A stretch of DNA of 40,741 nucleotides from a virus (taxonomy: Duplodnaviria; Heunggongvirae; Uroviricota; Caudoviricetes): positions 1-40,741 of IMG/VR virus record IMGVR_UViG_2711768062_000003. The stretch is one strand, 5' to 3'. Numbering within the stretch: position 1 is the stretch's first letter; every line of letters begins with the position of its first letter. Positions 1,711 through 13,766 of the stretch are shown piece after piece. Under the pieces are notes generated by a model. That model had not been told where the DNA came from. It saw only the letters and a list, made by a program, of their open reading frames with translations, and searched no databases. Made by a program: the position numbers and the translations under genes.

Positions 1711-2829
1711 TCAGGCCACGTATTCCGGTTTCATATCCGCCAGGGTGATGCTGAATTGATCGTGCAGTTCATCGCCTAAGTGACGCTTTGAAGATGCAAG
1801 CATGCGCTCGGCTTCAGCGAACCGTTCGGCTGCATGCGGCTCGTCGGGCTGGGGCAGGGATTTAATAGCCTCCTCAACCTTGTTGCGTGCATCCACTAGG
1901 TAATAACGCTTTACGGCTTTGTTTTTCAGCTCGGTGAATAGTGCGGATCCCAGCGTAGCTTTCGCCGTTTCAATGTCGGCACGCAGCGATTTGGCGCTAT
2001 CCACGTCCTGAGCAGATTCGATGCGTTCGCGGAAATCATCGGCAAGAGAGTCGACATTTACCGACGATTCCTGTGCGCTTTGCGTGGTTGTGACGGTGTC
2101 ACATGAGATATCAGCCAGGCTAACGCGTTGCGGCGTTGGGTTGATCTCTTTTTCTGTGCGCTGTTCAATCTCATCAGGGGTGTACACACCAAGAACAACT
2201 GCAGGGCAATACAGGCGCGCCCAGTATTTGAGTGCCAGATAAGCGATCTGCTGTTTCGGGTTTGATACCCAAAGTGGAGAATTACGTGTGATTACGCTGG
2301 AGAGGAAAACAGGCTCTCCCCAGGTGATATCACTTTCACCGCGAATAACGGCACCTACCCGTACCGACAGTCCTTGTTCATCAGCACTTTCCCAACCGCG
2401 TACCATTTCTTTCTTGTCGTACGTCCCGCCACCTTTCGCAGGCTTTTTAACGGTTATCTCGCGGCTGCTGGCACATTTCGACCAGTCGCCCTCGTACTCA
2501 TAGTGAAAGCGGCCAACGATGGCGTTTGAGCTGGAGATCACCGCATTAACCAGTTGCGCTTCGTATCCCAGGACACCGTTAACCAGGTGCGTCTTTTGCG
2601 CCACGGCGTAAGGGTTCATACCCCACTGCATCGCCTGCATGATGATGGCCATGCAGTCTGCCGGATTGCCGCGGAGGTGCTCAGGCACCGTTACGGCTGC
2701 CTGTGCCATCAACCCGGCGACAGACTGAAGCTGGGTTAAAGCCTGCACGTTGAAAATGGCATTGCTGGCTGAGATCGTGTTTGGAGTCTGCTGTTCAGCG
2801 GTTACGATATTCGTGTTTTCCATCATCAT
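1711..2829 (-). CDS. RecT/Bet-family single-strand annealing recombinase
   Basis: 372-aa ORF; N-terminal core (IIMQAMQWGMNPYAVAQKTHLVNGVLGYEAQLVNAV) matches the RecT/Red-beta pattern from memory; immediately downstream of the exonuclease gene as in recET modules. Confidence 0.65.
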   Translation of the reverse strand: MMMENTNIVTAEQQTPNTISASNAIFNVQALTQLQSVAGLMAQAAVTVPEHLRGNPADCMAIIMQAMQWGMNPYAVAQKTHLVNGVLGYEAQLVNAVISSSNAIVGRFHYEYEGDWSKCASSREITVKKPAKGGGTYDKKEMVRGWESADEQGLSVRVGAVIRGESDITWGEPVFLSSVITRNSPLWVSNPKQQIAYLALKYWARLYCPAVVLGVYTPDEIEQRTEKEINPTPQRVSLADISCDTVTTTQSAQESSVNVDSLADDFRERIESAQDVDSAKSLRADIETAKATLGSALFTELKNKAVKRYYLVDARNKVEEAIKSLPQPDEPHAAERFAEAERMLASSKRHLGDELHDQFSITLADMKPEYVA

Positions 2830-2834
2830 TCCCC

Positions 2835-5800
2835 TTATGCCTGAGTACGCAGCGCTTCAAGGCGGCGCAGGTCGAAGTCGTTCAGTTCGTCGGTGTAGTC
2901 AGCAGTGATTGGCGCTGGCCATTCACCTGTGTCGAATCCGGTTGCGATATTGCGCATCGCTTTGCGGTACTCGAGCATACCCAGCTCCAGTAGTTCAGCG
3001 GATGCCTCGATGATGGCGATCCAGTGGTAGTTCTCGTCTTTGTTGACGAAAATCCAGAAGAACTGATCCAGCGCTGCGGTTTCGCAGTACATAGCCGCGC
3101 TCAGGTGATAATCACGTTCAATAATTTCCCGGTGTAGCCTGGCGCGCAGGCTTTCCTGCTTAACATTCCACATGCTGATGGTTTTCAGGTCTGCACCTAT
3201 ACGCACGCCATCCAGGTCGATCTCAAGGTCAGGGCGCACACGAACTTCCAAGCCCGTCTCCTCGTCAAAACCAAAGTAGCTCACCTCAACGGCTCGGCTA
3301 GGGTGGGTCAGCAGCATGCCGGCGGTCGGGTGTGCCAGAAGCGCTTTTTGAATATTCAGCGCGGTGCTCAGCTGCTGGCGGGTGACCAGCACTTTTCCTT
3401 CCGGGTTATCGCGCCAGGCATCCAGCAGTTCGTCGGCAAATACGGCATCTGGTTTGACTGCCTTCACGGCCTGGATCATGTCTGCTTTGGTACCGGACAC
3501 TTTCAGTGGTGCCGGTTTCTGTGCTTCCTGAGCCACAAGGTCAGGGTTGATGATTGCCAACTGCTCCAGCAGCGCGTCACGGCTGCCGCTGGTTTTAACC
3601 GGCGGCGGCAGGGTGGCGTTGTACTCTTTAATGCATGCCTTCATTGCCGTCGCCGTCTGCTTCTGGTCACCATCAATACGCTGGAAGTCAGCTGGCAGCG
3701 CCATATAGTTCTGTGCCGTTTCTTCCAGGTTAGCGCCAAGCGGAACCTGCGGCGGCAGGGTGGCGTTGTACTCTTCCAGTAACACCTTGATGTCGTCGGC
3801 AGACAGCAGCGCCGGCAGGCTGGCATTGTGCTCATCGATAAAGGCGCGCAGGGTCGCGGCCGTTGTGAATGCGCCTTCAGGGATCACCGGTTCAACGCTG
3901 AATTCTGCGTCCAGTAGTTCAGGCTGCAACGCCAGCGCATGCACCAAGTTGCCCATGTCCAGCACCGCTGAGCGCTCTTTGACGATGGTTTTCTCTACGT
4001 GGCGCGCATTGAAGTACATCAGCGAAACGCGCGCATCTTTCACCTGGGTTGAGCTGATGCCGTTGGCGGCGTGGTAAACCTCGTTTGGCAGCCCTTCATA
4101 GCGGCCTGGCTCGAAATAAGCGGGATAAACAACAGCTGGTTCGTCAGATTGCGCTTCTGGCTCGGTTTGTGCTGCAACTGGTTCGGTTTGGCTTACAGAA
4201 TCGCTATTTTTGGCGACAGAATCCGTATTCTGGTTTACATCGTCCTTCTGGCTGGTATCTGACTCTTCACCAGACTCCAGACTGCTTTCGCCTGGCTGTA
4301 CTTCATCACCAACATTTTTTTCATCACTGACAGTTTCTTGAACCTGCACATTGCTGGTGGTTTCCGTAGCCTGTTTCGTGCCATGAGTTGCTGAGTTCTG
4401 CAGTAAAGCCGTAACATCGAATATTCCGTTGCCGACATTTTTAACCAGTTCTTGTTCGGCTTTATGTGGTTGTGCTGTCGCTTCCTCTGCGCGGCGGCGT
4501 GCTTCTTCTTCACGTACGCGTTGCAGGTTCTCTTCGTGAGTGCAGAAGGATTTGCGCGGAGACTCCTTACCTTCAGGTTGGGGAATTTCCTGTGCTGCGG
4601 GTTCAGCCTCATGCAACGGCAATAACTCGACCGCGGAATTGAACGCGGCTGTCATGGTCTGGTTAACAAATTCCAGGTGAGCGACAGGAGTTAAATGAAT
4701 ATTTTCCGGTGCGATACGTACCAGGTTAAAAATAGCCGTGCGGTTAACACCCAGAACGCCTGGCTGATTGCGCAGGATGTTGCTCCATGATTTCCATGGT
4801 TCTTCTTTTTTGGTCACGATTTCTTTAGCGCGACGAAGAATGCTGCCCGGGATCTCGAAGTGGTTGAAGTCCATAGGCAGAAGGGCACATGCAATCTCTA
4901 AATCGAGAGTGTCAAGGGTATGGTATGTATCAGGTCCACGGTCAGTGACGTAACCGCCGTTGGCATTGGTTCCGGAATCAGTACGCTGCACACTACTGAT
5001 GCGATTACCGGCGGCCCATTCGCGAACGAGGATACCGCGGTCGATGTGATCTGTAGCGAACCACAATTTCAAAAACTGGATTAAGGTTGCGAGTTCAGGG
5101 ATTTTTCCATCGACAGGGAAGACTTTCTTAACGGCATTCACGACTTTATGAATATCGTGCTCAATGGCTTTTTTGAATGCTTCCACATTCTCAGCTGCCA
5201 GCAGCAGGTTCTGGACGTACGCGTCATCGGTGTCCATCTCAAGGCGGACAATCTCATTTTTCTGCCCTGCGTCGATGTGATAGAGATATTCACCATCACC
5301 GATGAACTGAGCCAGTACGCGCTGGCGGAATGGCAGGGTGGCAACAACGATCAGGTTCGGTTGCTGTGTCTGCTGGGATTGCTCTTCGGTATCGACTTCA
5401 CCATCAACGACGCCACCTTCTGCCCGGCCGTTCTCGTCGGTCTGGATACCGTCCTCAACAGTGAGATCTTGACCAGTTGTAACGTCAGCAGCGTTGCTGG
5501 TTTCAGTTTTGAGCAACTGCAACTTACCACTGCGCCAGTCTTCTACCAGTTGATTGCGGTCACCGGCATCGGTGTTCACCCAGTCAGACATGAATGCAGC
5601 GATCAATCTTGGTTCGTGCTCTTCGTCTGGTGTGAAAATGTCCTTAACCGCCCGAATCATTTTCCACTCAGCATTCAGGCTGAGTTTGGCGGTCGCGGGC
5701 ACATCGTTCCTTGCCACAAGCAGGCTATGGAGATATGTATTGCCTTCATCCAGTGACATTTCGCTGGCAGCCAACTGCTGCTCTTTAGTGACGTGGGTTT

Positions 5801-6224
5801 GGTATTTATCGTTCATCAGATGGACGGCAAAGCGGACCGCTGGAGTACGGTTTTCAACCGGGACAATTTCGGACGCAGTCGCATCTTCAACGATTACGGT
5901 CGGAGTAGGTGTGTAGGGGGCGTCAACGGAACCAGTAGACACACCAGCGGCTTTTGGCAGCCAGGTGCGCCCATCGTCCTGAAGCTCGTAGCGATCACAC
6001 CAGGTAAAATCAACTTCACCTTCTTTCGGCAGGCCGTCGACAACTGGGAAATCAGTGCGAATCGGTTTGGCGTAGTCCTTACCCCGACCTGTTTCGATAC
6101 CTGCATCTTCCAGCGCAACATCCAGCATCAGATTGGCGCGAGCCTCGGTTTTAGCAGTGAACCAGACCACTGCATCTTGCTTTCCGGATTTCTGAGTGGC
6201 TTTAACCACATTAAAGAATTCCAT
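2835..6224 (-). CDS. RecE-like exonuclease VIII (long N-terminal region, C-terminal PD-(D/E)xK nuclease domain)
   Basis: 1129-aa ORF; C-terminus has RPDLEID ... ADLKT (PD ... DxK) nuclease motif arrangement; paired with RecT-like gene; acidic low-complexity linker and internal repeats. Confidence 0.7.
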   Translation of the reverse strand: MEFFNVVKATQKSGKQDAVVWFTAKTEARANLMLDVALEDAGIETGRGKDYAKPIRTDFPVVDGLPKEGEVDFTWCDRYELQDDGRTWLPKAAGVSTGSVDAPYTPTPTVIVEDATASEIVPVENRTPAVRFAVHLMNDKYQTHVTKEQQLAASEMSLDEGNTYLHSLLVARNDVPATAKLSLNAEWKMIRAVKDIFTPDEEHEPRLIAAFMSDWVNTDAGDRNQLVEDWRSGKLQLLKTETSNAADVTTGQDLTVEDGIQTDENGRAEGGVVDGEVDTEEQSQQTQQPNLIVVATLPFRQRVLAQFIGDGEYLYHIDAGQKNEIVRLEMDTDDAYVQNLLLAAENVEAFKKAIEHDIHKVVNAVKKVFPVDGKIPELATLIQFLKLWFATDHIDRGILVREWAAGNRISSVQRTDSGTNANGGYVTDRGPDTYHTLDTLDLEIACALLPMDFNHFEIPGSILRRAKEIVTKKEEPWKSWSNILRNQPGVLGVNRTAIFNLVRIAPENIHLTPVAHLEFVNQTMTAAFNSAVELLPLHEAEPAAQEIPQPEGKESPRKSFCTHEENLQRVREEEARRRAEEATAQPHKAEQELVKNVGNGIFDVTALLQNSATHGTKQATETTSNVQVQETVSDEKNVGDEVQPGESSLESGEESDTSQKDDVNQNTDSVAKNSDSVSQTEPVAAQTEPEAQSDEPAVVYPAYFEPGRYEGLPNEVYHAANGISSTQVKDARVSLMYFNARHVEKTIVKERSAVLDMGNLVHALALQPELLDAEFSVEPVIPEGAFTTAATLRAFIDEHNASLPALLSADDIKVLLEEYNATLPPQVPLGANLEETAQNYMALPADFQRIDGDQKQTATAMKACIKEYNATLPPPVKTSGSRDALLEQLAIINPDLVAQEAQKPAPLKVSGTKADMIQAVKAVKPDAVFADELLDAWRDNPEGKVLVTRQQLSTALNIQKALLAHPTAGMLLTHPSRAVEVSYFGFDEETGLEVRVRPDLEIDLDGVRIGADLKTISMWNVKQESLRARLHREIIERDYHLSAAMYCETAALDQFFWIFVNKDENYHWIAIIEASAELLELGMLEYRKAMRNIATGFDTGEWPAPITADYTDELNDFDLRRLEALRTQA

Positions 6225-9338: not shown

Positions 9339-9878
9339 ATGCAGTCACTATCACTTCATCAAAATAGCGGATATCAAACGGCTGCGATGATAAATCGCAA
9401 TCAACCTGTCTCGGTAGATAAACATGACCAGATCCGCGATGCCGTTCGTGCGTGGGCGGGTGTAGATGGTCAGGATGTCGTTTCTGCTCTGATCATCGAA
9501 GAGTACCAGGCTCAAGGGGGAGACGAGATCACTTTCCCTGATGACCTCAGCCGACAGCGTCAGAAGCTTTTCCGCTTTCTGGATAACCATTTCAACAGCG
9601 AACGGTACCGCGAAAACGTTCGCCAGCTGACTCCGGCAATCCTCGCTGTCCTGCCGATTGAATACCGCAATCGTCTGCTACCAGAAGACAACGTAATGGC
9701 TCGTCTGGCAAGGCTGGAGAAGGAAACCAGCGAAGCGAAGATTGCTGTCGCAATGGATGCGCCACGTCATCAGAAGCTGAAAGAGTTGAGCGAGGGGATC
9801 GTGGAGATGTATCGCGTTGACCCTGGGTTAACCGGTCCGTTGATGGAAATGGTGCAGATTATGCTGGGGGCTATATGA
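9339..9878 (+). CDS. YdaT-like / CII-like early regulatory protein
   Basis: 179-aa ORF directly after cro-like gene as in Rac ydaS-ydaT; family assignment from recalled pattern only. Confidence 0.5.
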   Translation: MQSLSLHQNSGYQTAAMINRNQPVSVDKHDQIRDAVRAWAGVDGQDVVSALIIEEYQAQGGDEITFPDDLSRQRQKLFRFLDNHFNSERYRENVRQLTPAILAVLPIEYRNRLLPEDNVMARLARLEKETSEAKIAVAMDAPRHQKLKELSEGIVEMYRVDPGLTGPLMEMVQIMLGAI

Positions 9879-9962
9879 CCGGTTCAAAAATGGCGAAAGC
9901 CGCGGTGCTCGAACACCAACGGCTTTCAGGTGCAAAAACAGTGCGTAATTGCGGAGAACAGT

Positions 9963-10871
9963 ATGTCAAACACCGCTGAAATAATCAATTTCCCAAATAA
10001 AACCGAACAACCGGGAGGTCGTATGGCCGACCTGTCGAACGGGTATACCAAGGTCGCTAACGAGATCCAACAGCTTAAGCCTCGCCTGAGACTGTCAGGC
10101 CGGGAATGGCAATGTTTTGAGGCGGTGATCTGGCTTACCTACGGCTGGAACAAGAAACAGGACCGCGTGACAAATACGGTTATTGCCGAGCTTACGGGCC
10201 TGAGCGATACGCATGTATCGGACGCGCTTAAGTCTCTCGCAGAACGCAAAATCATCTTTTCACAGAAGCAGGGCATGATGAAAATCGTCGGTGTAAACAC
10301 TGACCTTTCAGCATGGATTTTAGACAAACCGGAAACGGGAAGAAAATTCCCGAAAACGGGAAAATCCTTCCCGAAATCAGGAATAACCTTCCCGAAAACG
10401 GTAGACACCCAATACAAGAACAAGAACAGTATTAAAAGATCTTCGTCCGAGAATTCTGACGAATCCTCTGACGCACGTCTGAAGAAATTTTTATCAACTC
10501 ATCCTGAAGCTGCGGTCTACACACCATCCGGTGCGAAGTGGGGCTCTGCTGAAGACCTCGAGACAGCTAAGTGGATTTCCTCCAGGGTGAAGCTGATTAA
10601 CCCAACCTGCAAAGCCCCGGACATGACCTCCTGGTCTAACACTGTTCGCCTGATGCGCCAGATAGACGACCGGTCGCACCAGGACATCTGCGCGCTGTAT
10701 GACTGGGCTAGCAAACACCACTTCTGGCAGACCAACATCCTGAGTCCCGAAAGCCTGCGTAAGCAGTGGGACAAGCTGACAATGCAGCGTAACGCCGGAG
10801 GTGAGCAGCGCGCTGTCAAGCCAGATCTGGACTTCAACAACACTGACTGGGCCTATGGGGTGATCCGATGA
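9963..10871 (+). CDS. Replication initiator (lambda O-like replisome organiser)
   Basis: N-terminal motif LSGREWQCFEAVIWLTYGW ... VIAELTGLSDTHVSDALKSL typical of phage replication O N-domain; iterons inside gene; ATGA overlap with P; alternative GTG start at 9930. Confidence 0.75.
   Translation: MSNTAEIINFPNKTEQPGGRMADLSNGYTKVANEIQQLKPRLRLSGREWQCFEAVIWLTYGWNKKQDRVTNTVIAELTGLSDTHVSDALKSLAERKIIFSQKQGMMKIVGVNTDLSAWILDKPETGRKFPKTGKSFPKSGITFPKTVDTQYKNKNSIKRSSSENSDESSDARLKKFLSTHPEAAVYTPSGAKWGSAEDLETAKWISSRVKLINPTCKAPDMTSWSNTVRLMRQIDDRSHQDICALYDWASKHHFWQTNILSPESLRKQWDKLTMQRNAGGEQRAVKPDLDFNNTDWAYGVIR
10328..10402. repeat. Iteron array (candidate phage origin of replication) inside the O-like gene
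   Basis: Four direct copies of (T)TCCCGAAA(A/T)C(G/A)GG at about 20-bp spacing (10329, 10347, 10367, 10388), encoding the repetitive peptide FPKTGKSFPKSGITFPKT. Confidence 0.5.
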
Positions 10872-11557
10872 AATCTCTTGCAGAGCAGATGCGTAACCAC
10901 GACCGCGAGCAGATGAGCCGCATGGCCCATAACCTGCCAGAGCAGTACCAGGAGTGCGCGCCGGTCGAGCAGGTGGCGCAGGTATTCAACAAGCTGTTCA
11001 ACGAGCTGCGCGCCGCGTTCCCGGCCAGCATGGCGAACTTCCGCACCCAGGAAGACCTGAACGAATTCCGCCGTCAGTGGCTGCTGGCGTTTCAGGAGAA
11101 CGGGATCCACACCATGGCTCAGGTCGATGCCGGCATGCGCATTGCCCGCCGCCAGGAGCGCCCATTCCTGCCGTCGCCGGGCCAGTTCGTCGCCTGGTGC
11201 AAGCAGAGCGGCGGCGCGCTGGGCGTCAACGTTGACCAGGTGATCGCCGAATACTGGGACTGGCGTAACAGCTCGTTCGAATTCATCTCCAGCGAGCAAT
11301 TTCCATGGTCGCAGCCGGTCATGTACCACATTTGCGTAGAATTGCGCCACCGCAGCACCGAGCGCCAGTTAACGCATGGTGAACTGGCACGCGAGGCAGG
11401 CGATCTGCTGGACATGTGGGAAAGGCGCGTCACCGAGGGTAAGCCAGTGCCGCCGGTACGCCGGGCTATTGCCGCACCAGCTGCCGAGCAAGGGCCGACG
11501 CCGATCCAGCTGCTGCTGGCCAAGTACAACCGCAACAAGTCGAACGGGATGGTGTGA
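10868..11557 (+). CDS. Replication protein P (DnaB helicase loader), lambda P homologue
   Basis: 229 aa; long collinear similarity to lambda P from memory (EQMRNHDREQM ... NLPEQY ... VAQ ... RRQWLLAFQENGI ... RRQERPFLPSPGQFVAWC). Confidence 0.85.
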   Translation: MKSLAEQMRNHDREQMSRMAHNLPEQYQECAPVEQVAQVFNKLFNELRAAFPASMANFRTQEDLNEFRRQWLLAFQENGIHTMAQVDAGMRIARRQERPFLPSPGQFVAWCKQSGGALGVNVDQVIAEYWDWRNSSFEFISSEQFPWSQPVMYHICVELRHRSTERQLTHGELAREAGDLLDMWERRVTEGKPVPPVRRAIAAPAAEQGPTPIQLLLAKYNRNKSNGMV

Positions 11558-11558
11558 C

Positions 11559-11797
11559 ATGAACATAACAATCCGTGAGCAGGTGCTGGCAGCCCTGCGC
11601 AACAACCCAGGGTTGAACAACGCCAAACTGGCAGGGCTTCCCGGAGTGGTACATCATCGATCAGGACTATCGGGGGCAGAAGTACGCGAAGGACAAGCAG
11701 GTTGCGCGTTGTGGCAACGCAGTTCCGCCGCCATTCGCCGAGGCACTGGTGAGGGCTAATTTACCGGAGCTTTGTCAGCAGAAAGAGATCGCAGCTT
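11559..11797 (+). pseudogene. Degraded remnant resembling the 3-prime end of a DNA methyltransferase gene (frameshifted)
   Basis: Frame 1 gives MNITIREQVLAALRNNPGL ..., a second frame gives WYIIDQDYRGQKYAKDKQVARCGNAVPPPFAEALVRANLPELCQQKEIAA (GNAV-PP motif); too short for an intact enzyme. Confidence 0.3.
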
Positions 11798-11898
11798 AAT
11801 GTCCGAGTTTCAGAACATGGTGTAACAAATCCTGCTACTTCAATGACGTAGATTCAAACCTGATATAATTAGGCTCTTCACAACACGAGGAGCCTAAA

Positions 11899-12135
11899 AT
11901 GCACCATTACATGATCCCTATCAACGGAACTGTTCACCTGATCAAGACTGACTCTCTAATCCCTGAAGGGACTGAGTATAGCTTTGAAGGAGAAAGTCTA
12001 ATCTGCGCTCATGCCACTTTTAAATCTGGGACGTATGGCTTCCTGATACCAAAGGGAAATCAGTTGAATAGAGAGCATGCGTTCTGGCATGTAAGTGGAA
12101 TTCACCCTAATCCCCTGGGAATGGATAAATCGTAA
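11899..12135 (+). CDS. Hypothetical protein (AT-rich moron)
   Basis: 78-aa ORF with GAGGAG SD; AT-rich segment between GC-rich flanks. Confidence 0.5.
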   Translation: MHHYMIPINGTVHLIKTDSLIPEGTEYSFEGESLICAHATFKSGTYGFLIPKGNQLNREHAFWHVSGIHPNPLGMDKS

Positions 12136-12143
12136 TCCATAAT

Positions 12144-12180
12144 ATGCATGCCATCGTCCTGAACATACGGTGGCATGCAT
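12144..12180. repeat. Perfect 10-bp inverted repeat ATGCATGCCA / TGGCATGCAT with 17-bp spacer
   Basis: Read directly; begins 9 nt after the stop of the 78-aa ORF; no T-run follows. Confidence 0.5.
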
Positions 12181-12404
12181 CCGGCACTACAACAGAAACG
12201 TTAAAGTGCAAACAATACAATTCGAGCAATATTCAACCTGTCACAGATGGCGAATACCACCGCCATTTCGTGCATTCTGTGGTTTCTATTACCCATTGCG
12301 TTAATGCTGTCCAATCATCAGCTCGCTGAGGCGCTGGTTAGGGCTAACCTACAGGAGCTTTGTCAGCAGAAACAAATAGCGGCGTAATAAAACATCGCTA
12401 ATTC

Positions 12405-12431
12405 AACCCGCTACGGCGGGTTTTCTTTTTT
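12405..12431 (+). terminator. Rho-independent terminator
   Basis: CCCGC-tacg-GCGGG followed by TTTTCTTTTTT. Confidence 0.7.
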
Positions 12432-12494
12432 TACTACTGACAGAAAATTAACAATTTGTGCTCTTAAAGCGTTGATCATTTCCGCGCATAGGTA

Positions 12495-12514
12495 TACTGT
12501 ATAAAAACACAGTA
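12495..12514. promoter_or_regulatory. LexA (SOS) box upstream of the dinI-like gene
   Basis: TACTGTATAAAAACACAGTA matches CTGT-N8-ACAG consensus; lies between candidate -35 TTGATC and the start codon. Confidence 0.7.
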
Positions 12515-12532
12515 AATGCAATGGGGGCCATT

Positions 12533-12766
12533 ATGAAAGTTGAATTAACCATTGATCGCATGAAAGAACTTCCTAAAGGCGCAGTACCAGCACTGGAGAA
12601 AGAACTGCTTAAGCGCCTGAATGATCACTATGACAATTGCAGGCTCACAATCCGCCGTGCCGGGGCCGATGGGTTAAGTGTTTTTGGTGGTGACAAGGAC
12701 GATAAAAAGAAAATTGAATCAATCCTCCAGGATACCTGGGAAAGCGCTGACGACTGGTTTTATTAG
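12533..12766 (+). CDS. dinI: DinI-family protein (SOS-induced RecA modulator homologue)
   Basis: 77 aa; MKVELTIDR ... LSVFGGDKDDKKKIESILQDTWESADDWFY closely matches the DinI family C-terminus (QETWESADDWF); LexA box upstream. Confidence 0.8.
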   Translation: MKVELTIDRMKELPKGAVPALEKELLKRLNDHYDNCRLTIRRAGADGLSVFGGDKDDKKKIESILQDTWESADDWFY

Positions 12767-12883
12767 AATTGCGCTTAAGGCTGGCGCGCATTTTTCAGAA
12801 TACCGCAATTTGCGTAACCCTCTGATGCTGCTGCCGACAATCTTTAATCGCGTCTGTTAGTCGCTCGAAGGGAGAACATAAAT

Positions 12884-13132
12884 GTGAGTGATTCAGCTTT
12901 GCAAACGTCAGAAGACAACTGGTATGACATTGTAAGAAGGTCTGACGGCTGCGTGGTGTTTAGCTTTCCTTCATCGGGCAGGCATCTAATTTATCGCGTC
13001 AATGGCATGGTTTCTATGCGGCCTTTGCTGGATGATGAAGAGGTCTTTACTCCTAATGGTTTTATGCAGTTTATTAACCGTCTCGGCTACCGGGTAACCC
13101 AACCTTCTGATAATATGAAATCAACGGTCTGA
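12884..13132 (+). CDS. Hypothetical protein
   Basis: 82-aa ORF with GTG start and GAAGGGAG SD. Confidence 0.45.
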   Translation: MSDSALQTSEDNWYDIVRRSDGCVVFSFPSSGRHLIYRVNGMVSMRPLLDDEEVFTPNGFMQFINRLGYRVTQPSDNMKSTV

Positions 13133-13166
13133 ACAACCGTAACCTACTGCGCCACGGAGAGAAACC

Positions 13167-13766
13167 ATGGCGCACGAACTACAACTCATCAAGCAGTCAT
13201 CAGGAATCCTGATCCCCGCGACGCCGGAGACCAGCGATATTCTGCAATCAAAAATCAAACTCGGCGCCGTGCTGGTAGCCGACTTCAAACAGGTCCGCAA
13301 TCCGGCTTTCCACCGCCGCTTCTTCGCGCTTTTAAACCTCGGGTTCGAATACTGGGAGCCAACCGGCGGGGCGATCTCTTCCAACGAACGCAAGCTGGTG
13401 ACCGGCTATGCCAGATTTCTGGCCTCCTACGGCGGGAACGAAGGGGCGCTGCTGGATGCCGCTGAGCAATATCTCGAGCGCATCGCTGATAAGCGCACGG
13501 GCAGCATCAGCGCCTGCAAGTCATTCGACGCCTACCGCGCCTGGGTAACCATCGAATCCGGCCACTACGACGCGATACAGCTGCCTGACGGCACCCTCCG
13601 CAAACACCCCCGCAGCATCGCCTTCGCCAATATGGACGAAACCGAGTTCCAGCAACTCTACAGGGCCGCACTCGATGTTCTGTGGCGTTGGATCCTGTCC
13701 AGGGCATTCAAGAGCCGTAGCGACGCGGATAATGCCGCTGCGCAGCTCATGAGCTTCGTGGGGTGA
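13167..13766 (+). CDS. Conserved lambdoid nin-region protein (DUF1367-like, function unknown)
   Basis: 199-aa ORF; GGAGAG SD; coding-like composition; family recalled but unverified. Confidence 0.65.
   Translation: MAHELQLIKQSSGILIPATPETSDILQSKIKLGAVLVADFKQVRNPAFHRRFFALLNLGFEYWEPTGGAISSNERKLVTGYARFLASYGGNEGALLDAAEQYLERIADKRTGSISACKSFDAYRAWVTIESGHYDAIQLPDGTLRKHPRSIAFANMDETEFQQLYRAALDVLWRWILSRAFKSRSDADNAAAQLMSFVG

Follow-up and report, generated by a model that had tools for sequence, protein, structure and literature searches.

The DNA stretch analysed here (40,741 nt, called the window in the following) is a phi80/mEp237-like E. coli lambdoid prophage, and its region between the replication gene P and dinI is very probably an eroded slot that was remodelled in four events: a join, a 2865-bp deletion, a 718-bp deletion and a loss seen in strain AR_0119. 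The only parts that look functional from their sequence are dinI and an open reading frame of 78 codons (ORF78) with a putative promoter of its own. We consider the junction an ordinary, well-resolved case of known lambdoid mosaicism, and the current view of phage evolution is unchanged by this locus. It is a worked example, in which about 900 bp read against about 40 relatives make each step of lambdoid prophage remodelling visible. Precisely, these steps are the joining of modules at a shared gene end, the retention of a gene-end relic, the loss of an orphan methylase by two microhomology deletions and the loss of a cargo gene by recombination between two relics.

The arrangement is common to at least 30 complete E. 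coli genomes, with an identity of 99.9-100%. For the interval 11300-12900, at least seven E. coli chromosomes match the window at 100% and others at 99.9%, and phage mEp237 matches it at 99.8% and carries 718 extra bp. The left neighbour is the P gene (10868-11557, + strand; PF06992, E 1.8e-49), annotated as replication protein P both in E. coli genomes and in mEp237; its G+C content is 57-67%, against 42-47% over 11800-13100. An Rfam scan of 11400-13200 returned one chance match alone (17.8 bits against a gathering score of 49.5 bits), and in the literature mentioning mEp237 the region of the methylase end and ORF78 is not discussed. The annotation of the locus is corrected here on two points: a deletion created the 66-aa "hypothetical protein" as a chimera, and ORF78 and the second relic were left unannotated by PGAP.

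Two diverged methyltransferase gene ends

The region contains a direct repeat of 66 nt, with copy 1 at 11735-11800 and copy 2 at 12323-12388 (both on the + strand). The copies align without gaps at 83% identity with a spacing of 588 nt, 522 bp of unrelated DNA separate them, and in mEp237 the same pair is found by BLAST with an E value of about 1e-14. The initial annotation had described duplicated, diverged methyltransferase-like 3′ ends of roughly 80% identity; the second copy is indeed present and homologous to the first on alignment, and the remnant matches DNA methyltransferase PHROGs, while the figure had to be corrected to 83%. Of the differences between the copies, 9 are synonymous and 2 non-synonymous (pN/pS 0.07, p = 7e-5). 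On this comparison, we read them as the 3′ ends of two different C5-cytosine methyltransferase alleles, hereafter A (copy 1) and B (copy 2).

Copy 1 closes the remnant of allele A (11632-11799, + strand), which is made up of the last 55 codons and the stop of the gene. Its translation, QGFPEWYIIDQDYRGQKYAKDKQVARCGNAVPPPFAEALVRANLPELCQQKEIAA followed by a stop, contains CGNAVPPPF and matches phrog_23072 (E 1e-22). On the PF00145 profile it occupies positions 287-320 of a 324-position model and scores 16.5 bits against a cutoff of 22 bits, this score being below the cutoff because the piece is short. Motif X (GNAV) and homology to the family are present; a complete catalytic domain, with the AdoMet-binding motif I FxGxG and the catalytic PC of motif IV in one ORF, is absent from these last 55 codons. 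As only motif X survives, no enzyme can be made from the window, and lysogens with a window-type prophage cannot make the prophage methylase. PGAP did not call any methylase at the locus. In a comparison with relatives carrying the intact gene, which had been proposed as a check, positions 11631-11800 are identical (170/170) to the end of the intact methylase gene in IMG/VR locus L020. Both L020 and a second IMG/VR locus, L031, have a full-length methylase that aligns to residues 1-662 of our reference, the annotated 662-aa gene of E. coli strain H6, and scores 71 bits with PF00145; after it come an identical ORF78, then the relic, then dinI.

Copy 2 translates as AEALVRANLQELCQQKQIAA followed by a stop. 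Strain MSB1_9D has a relic of 99 nt that matches it at 97% identity and still reads VARCGNAVPPPF, with motif X kept, and by this alignment copy 2 is the end of a real second methylase allele. No intact allele-B methylase with exactly its 3′ end (...ANLQELCQQKQIAA) was recovered, and E. coli gave relics of 66-99 nt only; in Klebsiella phage 5 a methylase runs straight into a terminator and dinI, its end being only 75% identical to copy 2. Upstream of copy 2, the spacer at 12243-12322 (+ strand) is probably an older, decayed methylase relic with a +1 frameshift: in relatives without one A near position 12318, VTDGEYHRHFVHSVVSITHCVNAVQSSL is in register with IIDQDYRGQKYAKDKQVARCGNAVPPPF. Within the window, the DNA similarity of the regions upstream of the two copies was not significant by shuffling (p about 0.04-0.09), so that the evidence for a relic reaching further upstream than 12323 is the CxNAV match found in frame in the relatives, and for this reason the original position of the founding join is uncertain. 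We also considered as genes a 46-aa ORF at 12247-12387 and an ORF of about 81 aa in some relatives, and rejected them: the frame is not conserved, as lineages differ by a 1-nt indel and L026, L027 and L029 have an in-frame stop.

The spacer and the relic lie 3′ of every window-type ORF78 locus with downstream sequence, even where the next module differs (L011, which ends at the ORF78 stop, is outside this count), which suggests a single origin of the duplication. Complete E. coli genomes lack the L026-type downstream module, which has a lipoprotein-like ORF, and therefore its intact-methylase partner could not be found.

The strong terminator said to close the unit is predicted at 12405-12432 (+ strand) as a 7-bp GC-rich stem (12405-12422) followed by a T run, with a folding energy of -12.8 kcal/mol and z = -4.3. 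The unit of relic, terminator and dinI is also found in ECCWS199, KL53 and AR_0119 behind differing upstream genes, those of ECCWS199 and KL53 being unrelated. Ahead of dinI, a LexA-box-like palindrome at 12495-12514, TACTGTATAAAAACACAGTA, contains a perfect CTGT-N8-ACAG and has 0 mismatches to TACTGTAT-N6-ACAGTA, for which 0.05 occurrences per window are expected by chance. The right neighbour itself (12533-12766, + strand) belongs to the DinI family (PF06183, E 3.8e-26, 91.6 bits against a cutoff of 24.2; phrog_189), and with this predicted SOS box upstream it would be LexA-controlled.

Deletions, recombination and the proposed history

Immediately after P, the window carries codons 1-27 of a ren-like winged-helix gene (11559-11639, + strand; MNITIREQVLAALRNNPGLNNAKLAGL). 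The beginning of mEp237 gp44, a Ren-like protein of 114 aa with a match to PF13412 (HTH_24), is identical to them. The remnant ends in the junction of the 718-bp deletion (11631-11639), the sole surviving copy of the 9-bp repeat GCAGGGCTT (9/9 match); mEp237 has this repeat twice, at 1832-1840 and 2550-2558 of our locus L001, and the window keeps one copy without the intervening 718 bp. The ORF list contains here a chimeric ORF of 66 aa (11559-11759, + strand), called by PGAP as hypothetical protein WP_001299077.1, in which the ren start continues into the methylase end in a frame other than that of the methylase. Its first 25 residues match HTH_24 weakly, and it is probably a functionless by-product of the deletion. 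Hence the short out-of-frame remnants reported after P are real, but they derive from this later deletion between 9-bp repeats and not from module exchange. At the 2865-bp deletion, the junction GGC(C/G)GGTGGGCTG matches at 12 of 13 positions.

Strain AR_0119 is without the 588 bp between the repeats; left of GGAGCTTTGTCAGCAGAAA its bases are those of copy 1, right of it those of copy 2, with the crossover within a 19-bp identical block. The identity of the window to ECCWS199, AR_0119, KL53 and MSB1_9D starts or stops inside the 66-nt methylase end or at its edge, and this end is thus a diverged but alignable segment at the border of near-identity to relatives, as is the border ("shoulder") left by homeologous recombination. 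By these alignments, modules are exchanged at this methylase gene end. The window encodes RecT (PF03837) and RecE/ExoVIII (PF06630) at 1711-6224, and phage recombinases act on pairs of sequences with a divergence of up to 22% and generate lambdoid mosaics (PMC2327257, PMC3945230). The prophage RecE/RecT pair likely catalysed these events. The microhomology deletions could equally stem from replication slippage.

The reading of the region as the scar of module exchange between homologous gene ends therefore needs an amendment. The relatives do show exchange at this gene end, but a clean module swap by homologous recombination leaves no duplicate, and the duplicate thus requires an unequal or illegitimate joint inside a second methylase allele, which we infer to have produced it. 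Likewise, the AT-rich DNA between the copies, presented as an insertion, is a foreign module of lower G+C content, but it was not inserted into this methylase, which ORF78 and its promoter natively follow.

The following history would account for these observations. An ancestor would have carried an intact orphan methylase of allele A and, after it, its native moron, with an extended -10 promoter, a phrog_30079 gene and a hairpin. An unequal or illegitimate crossover would then have joined A and the moron into the 3′ part of allele B, which in other phages lies directly 5′ of the intrinsic terminator and the presumably LexA-controlled dinI. As this join left the 3′ end of allele B as a relic, the moron would have become bracketed by two diverged copies of one gene end. 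As comparison with relatives shows, a 2865-bp deletion between 13-bp near-repeats next removed ead-like genes and about the first 5/6 of methylase A, giving the state of mEp237. By the same kind of comparison, the 718-bp deletion put the 55 terminal methylase codons, in the wrong frame, directly after codon 27 of the ren-like gene, giving the state of the window, and because of this fusion the prophage makes neither the methylase nor the Ren-like protein any more. The repeats remain a substrate for recombination, and the comparison shows that in AR_0119 they have recombined, with loss of the moron. For the order of the deletions, descent is assumed and not reassortment between prophages.

Two head-to-tail copies at a distance of 588 bp could also have arisen by tandem duplication of the methylase 3′ end in situ, with the downstream copy drifting neutrally to 83%, in an arrangement old enough for the spacer to diverge by up to 13% among relatives. 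We consider this very unlikely, as the pattern of 9 synonymous and 2 non-synonymous changes fits coding alleles under selection and not decay, an intact gene matches copy 1 at 100%, a relic that in another context still keeps VARCGNAVPPPF matches copy 2 at 97%, and the unrelated 522 bp between the copies are left unexplained. Some prophages integrate into the 3′ ends of genes, and ORF78 could similarly sit on a small mobile cassette targeting the methylase 3′ end, the repeats being a target duplication or a gene-restoring copy of the attachment site. The module is in fact flanked by direct repeats of the 3′ end of its upstream gene, the upstream copy preserves the methylase frame in L020 and L031, and some relatives lack the module. 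Against this stand the length of the repeats (66 nt) and their identity of only 83%, the H6-type ORF78 allele, which follows a methylase without any downstream relic, and L037, in which promoter and ORF78 occur without upstream methylase sequence. In addition, neither an integrase or transposase in or beside the 588 bp nor terminal inverted repeats were found, and all of 11559-12432 is free of recombinase and transposase genes and of such inverted repeats. The single observed loss, in AR_0119, crossed over within a homology block as in ordinary recombination, and altogether a cassette seems very improbable.

Selection could be thought to have kept the methylase-end relic itself, either as a linker promoting exchange or because it belongs to a small ORF or a functional transcript. 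In several unrelated contexts, relics of 66-99 nt have survived 5′ of terminator and dinI, the relic sequence is precisely where differing modules on its two sides are combined, and preservation is far better in the last 66 nt than immediately upstream of them. This better preservation is, however, explained by repeated recombination with intact alleles; the candidate frame is broken as described above for the rejected ORFs, no Rfam match supports a functional transcript, and selection for evolvability is hard to show and is required by nothing at the locus. Selective maintenance of the relic thus appears unlikely, and we retain the joining of two alleles, followed by deletions, as the most probable history of the region.

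ORF78, its putative promoter and its hairpin

ORF78 (11899-12135, + strand) has a GAGGAG 6 nt 5′ of its ATG and lies, as first described, in AT-rich DNA (G+C 42-47%) bracketed by the two copies. The homology search that had been recommended for the 78-aa protein placed it in the family phrog_30079 (E 6.9e-49), its residues 1-78 covering profile positions 1-78 in a full-length match; homologues with 39-43% identity keep the length and 18 invariant residues. Searches in Pfam, NCBIfam and PADLOC and by fold gave no match (the AF2 model has a mean pLDDT of 80.5). A word-indexed protein search found near-identical copies only, a scan of genome contigs for relatives found none, and an exhaustive HMMER search found four real cluster representatives together with a few spurious repeat proteins. 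Among relatives, ORF78 is 96.6-98.3% identical against 87-88% for the adjacent spacer (Fisher p 1e-5 to 6e-4), a contrast by which the gene is judged to be under constraint; within the window-type allele, the few changes are split about evenly between synonymous and non-synonymous and are clustered in the C-terminal tail.

Two alleles of ORF78, with about 42% aa identity, lie 3′ of a methylase stop or remnant in 28 of 29 IMG/VR loci, and also in strain H6; L037 has the promoter and ORF78 without methylase sequence upstream. From this linkage we conclude that in both alleles ORF78 and its promoter natively follow this methylase. The putative promoter (11843-11869, + strand) consists of an extended -10, TGATATAAT, at 11861-11869 and a weak -35, ATGACG, with a 15-nt spacer, and because of this spacer length a generic -35/-10 scan found no site. 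The extended -10 is kept in every locus of both alleles, L037 included, and is an annotated promoter in the mEp237 record.

Just 3′ of the ORF78 stop, a hairpin (12144-12180, + strand; -22.2 kcal/mol, z = -3.7) without a U tract corresponds to the inverted repeat that the initial annotation had called perfect. The repeat is there, but its arms (12144-12157 and 12167-12180) are complementary at 13 of 14 positions, the odd one being a G-U pair as RNA, and only a 10-bp core (ATGCATGCCA/TGGCATGCAT) is perfect. Relatives retain the stem, without compensatory changes. The H6-type allele has a canonical terminator directly after the gene; past ORF78 of the window, the first one is that at 12405-12432, beyond the relic.

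By its arrangement ORF78 is probably a moron: its G+C content is deviant (42-46%, against 57-67% in P), and in Klebsiella phage 5 and AR_0119 the methylase end adjoins the terminator and dinI without it. As cargo of the lysogen, it probably has an expression of its own, separate from that of the early operon. A possible but doubtful further reading is that the 78-aa phrog_30079 protein is a partner or successor of the orphan methyltransferase, perhaps a small anti-restriction, anti-defence or superinfection-exclusion factor made from its own promoter in the lysogen. If true, this would explain the linkage of ORF78 to the methylase stop in two alleles of about 42% identity, its identity of 97-98% while the spacer drifts to 87%, and its retention in at least 30 E. 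coli genomes after deletion of the methylase. As a conserved small gene with a separate putative promoter, phrog_30079 merits a functional test.

Comparison with known systems

The closest known relative of the region is that of phage mEp237 (NC_019704/JQ182730, gp43-gp48), which shares with the window the P gene, the truncated end of the methylase, the second relic, the terminator and dinI, and whose record annotates a truncated methylase, the promoter and a 78-aa hypothetical gene (gp47). It differs from the window in that its ren-like gene is complete and in that it has an ORF of 65 aa and an in-frame chimera of 134 aa with the methylase C-terminus at its end; the second relic is unannotated in its record.

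The remnant can also be placed among the orphan C5-cytosine methyltransferases of enterobacterial lambdoid phages, such as those of E. coli H6 (662 aa) and Klebsiella phage 5 LV-2017 (715 aa). It is an exact 3′ end of such a gene in the same slot, between the replication genes and the nin-like region, but motif X alone survives in the window.

Morons are autonomous promoter-gene-terminator units between genes that are adjacent in related lambdoid phages, and the term was reportedly defined in the comparative papers on HK97 and HK022. ORF78 resembles them in its conserved promoter-like element, its downstream hairpin, its G+C content lower than that of its neighbours and its presence or absence between the methylase end and dinI among close relatives. 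Unlike them, it stays with one particular upstream gene across two diverged alleles, its hairpin is without a U tract, and one of its allele lineages is bracketed by duplicate ends of the upstream gene.

Homeologous ("relaxed") recombination by phage Rad52-like recombinases leaves diverged "shoulders" at mosaic borders (Martinsohn et al. 2008, PMC2327257; De Paepe et al. 2014, PMC3945230). The locus shares with these cases a 66-nt homology of 83% identity with a 19-bp identical block at a module border, an encoded RecET pair and, in AR_0119, a recombinant with its crossover inside that block. Here, unlike in the published shoulders, both partners are direct repeats in one genome, so that the outcome read from the sequences is the deletion of the moron.

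The prophage and its repeated methylase ends

The window carries an integrase gene (1-1194), RecT (PF03837) with a 1129-aa RecE/ExoVIII-like exonuclease (1711-6224, minus strand), a CI-like repressor, a YdaT-like gene (9339-9878), the replication genes O and P (9930-11557, P being phi80-like) and, 3′ of O/P, a DUF1367/DUF1364/RusA/Q-type nin region. Segment 11300-12900 was matched at 100% in at least seven complete E. coli chromosomes and at 99.9% in others, with 99.8% identity to coliphage mEp237. The window is thus an E. coli lambdoid prophage of the phi80/mEp237 type.

The initial annotation had described repeated methylase-like ends around AT-rich DNA with a 78-aa ORF, and these were indeed present as a gap-free direct repeat of 66 nt (11735-11800 and 12323-12388, 83% identity, 588 bp apart). 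Copy 1 closes the reading frame 11632-11799, whose translation ends in ARCGNAVPPPFAEALVRANLPELCQQKEIAA and a stop, and which matches DNA methyltransferase PHROGs (E 1e-22) and the C-terminal end of PF00145; copy 2, hereafter the relic, translates as AEALVRANLQELCQQKQIAA and a stop. The G+C content passes from 57-67% in P to 42-47% over 11800-13100. The inverted repeat reported as perfect was found as a hairpin between the 78-aa ORF and the relic (12144-12180, -22.2 kcal/mol, z = -3.7), with arms complementary at 13/14 positions. A canonical terminator (12405-12432), positioned between the early rightward operon and dinI, closes the unit. A second small hairpin in the spacer (12246-12272, GATGGCG...CGCCATTT), with a weak T-rich tail, could be a degenerate terminator; its stem is disrupted in one relative (L028).

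The 78-aa ORF (ORF78, 11899-12135, with a GAGGAG ribosome-binding site) matched phrog_30079 over its full length (E 7e-49). A second allele, of equal length and with about 42% aa identity, lies directly 3′ of an intact methylase in E. coli H6 and in several IMG/VR loci, and 18 residues are invariant in this very small family. An extended -10 element (TGATATAAT, 11861-11869) and the intergenic DNA around it are kept in all ORF78 loci of both alleles, and in locus L037 although the methylase is absent upstream; the mEp237 record annotates a promoter at this upstream region. Among more distant loci of the window type, ORF78 had 96.6-98.3% identity versus 87-88% in the adjoining spacer (Fisher p 1e-5 to 6e-4). 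By these comparisons ORF78 is a real gene whose place is beside the methylase and, with its own predicted promoter, is likely the functional gene of 11559-12432. Searches of Pfam, NCBIfam and PADLOC gave no match, and the confident AF2 model (pLDDT 80.5; five strands and one helix) had no significant structural neighbour.

Deletions after the P gene

The earlier reading of the region as a module exchange was partly right, but it did not hold for the out-of-frame remnants after P, which are the product of deletions, nor for a plain homologous exchange leaving a duplicate. The mEp237 alignment consisted of two blocks with a 9-nt overlap, and the window is without the 718 bp between two GCAGGGCTT copies (1832-1840 and 2550-2558 of the mEp237 locus, L001). 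In mEp237 this segment holds the remainder of a 114-aa Ren-like winged-helix gene, a 65-aa ORF and the start of a 134-aa protein with the methylase C-terminus at its end. Since the segment is missing from the window, 27 ren-like codons are joined out of frame to the final 55 methylase codons, giving a 66-aa chimera (11559-11759) that PGAP calls a hypothetical protein.

mEp237 is already a deleted form in its turn. In two IMG/VR loci (L020, L031) the P, ren and 65-aa genes are as in mEp237 and are followed by ead/Ea22-like and further small genes, after which comes a full-length methylase (PF00145, 71 bits) aligning to residues 1-662 of the annotated E. coli H6 methylase, taken as reference; downstream are an identical ORF78, the relic and dinI. 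Compared with these loci, mEp237 has lost 2865 bp between GGCCGGTGGGCTG and GGCGGGTGGGCTG, and the 170-nt remnant of the window agrees at 170/170 positions with the terminal part of the intact gene in L020. Because the genes are intact in the long forms, the direction of change, from long to deleted, is clear. Neither the methylase nor the Ren-like protein can be made by the prophage. In two further loci (L024, L025) a 1-nt deletion in the copy 1 upstream of ORF78 frameshifts the methylase remnant, which is another independent inactivation. A 142-aa database protein from outside the window (P0003) joins the first ~84 residues of the window's YdaT-like protein to ORF78 residues 19-78, so that some assembly must have an even larger deletion, removing O, P and the methylase remnant.

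Origin of the relic and exchange at the methylase end

The two copies differ at 11 positions, 9 synonymous and 2 non-synonymous (pN/pS 0.07, binomial p = 7e-5), so they diverged while both were coding; an in-situ duplication of the methylase end is, against this ratio, very unlikely. Copy 2 instead derives from the 3′ end of another methylase allele. It shares 97% identity with a 99-nt relic of strain MSB1_9D that still reads VARCGNAVPPPF. Relics of 66-99 nt, with the same terminator and dinI, stand behind unrelated genes in E. coli ECCWS199 (a cargo block with tRNA-Ile) and strain KL53 (an HTH gene), while in Klebsiella phage 5 LV-2017 a 715-aa methylase leads straight to terminator and dinI. 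KL53 and MSB1_9D have the upstream gene and relic in common but differ downstream, with dinI in the former and an H6-type ORF78 and a theta-subunit gene in the latter. With such varied modules on either side, the methylase gene end is the recombination point for upstream and downstream modules in this phage group. We considered a mobile cassette targeting the methylase end as scarcely credible; selection keeping the relic as a linker is improbable, and none of the data require it. In ECCWS199 (L007, 1709-4000) the slot from the ren-like gene to relic and dinI holds several small hypothetical genes and the opposite-strand tRNA-Ile, and the relic, which reads AVPPF, extends to about 85 nt and so is longer.

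Every window-type ORF78 locus with downstream sequence shares the hairpin, the spacer and the relic, even before differing modules (L011 ends at the ORF78 stop and is thus outside this comparison), so the duplication had a single origin. In relatives without one A near 12318 the stretch that precedes copy 2 reads ITHCVNAVQSSL, which is in register with VARCGNAVPPPF. This stretch is probably an older, decayed part of the relic, frameshifted in the window; on that view the well-kept last 66 nt would have been refreshed at a later time through recombination with intact alleles. This longer relic is graded only as probable because the DNA-level test of the extension within the window was not significant. 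No conserved ORF spans the relic among the compared loci. In three loci (L026, L027, L029) the relic is followed, in place of terminator and dinI, by a palindrome and an ORF starting MKFSRMIAGTVFSVMLSGC, which resembles a lipoprotein signal; complete E. coli genomes lack this module.

The 718-bp deletion junction is shared by E. coli AR_0119, but this strain is without the 588 bp between the repeats. To the left of a 19-bp identical block, GGAGCTTTGTCAGCAGAAA, its only methylase end has the bases of copy 1, and to the right those of copy 2. Recombination or single-strand annealing between the copies would be expected to give this form, so the repeats still recombine. Phage Rad52-like recombinases are known to act on sequences with as much as 22% divergence and to give rise to lambdoid mosaics (PMC2327257, PMC3945230). 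We infer that RecE/RecT of the prophage take part here, and the RecT and RecE/ExoVIII-like pair could be the catalyst of repeat-mediated deletions in the region.

The dinI side and comparison with known systems

To the right of the relic dinI looks intact. A perfect LexA-box-type palindrome, TACTGTATAAAAACACAGTA (12495-12514), lies 19 nt upstream of its start, with a chance expectation of 0.05 per window, which implies that the prophage dinI would be under SOS control. An 82-aa ORF (12884-13132, phrog_340, E 4.5e-20), between dinI and the DUF1367 gene, accompanies dinI in most relatives. ORF78, relic, dinI and this ORF form a 1.3-kb low-G+C island (11800-13150, 42-47%) between high-G+C flanks (P up to 67%, DUF1367 58-68%); it would seem, then, that several neighbouring modules are foreign, beyond the ORF78 unit alone.

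Part of this was already known: mEp237 is a published phage of essentially the same sequence, in whose record the methylase truncation, the promoter and the ORF are already annotated. New in this analysis are the second relic, the argument for two alleles, the reconstruction of successive deletions and the recombinant form in AR_0119. The structure as a whole fits established concepts, namely the moron, the gene-end relic at a module border, homeologous recombination and prophage decay by microhomology deletion.
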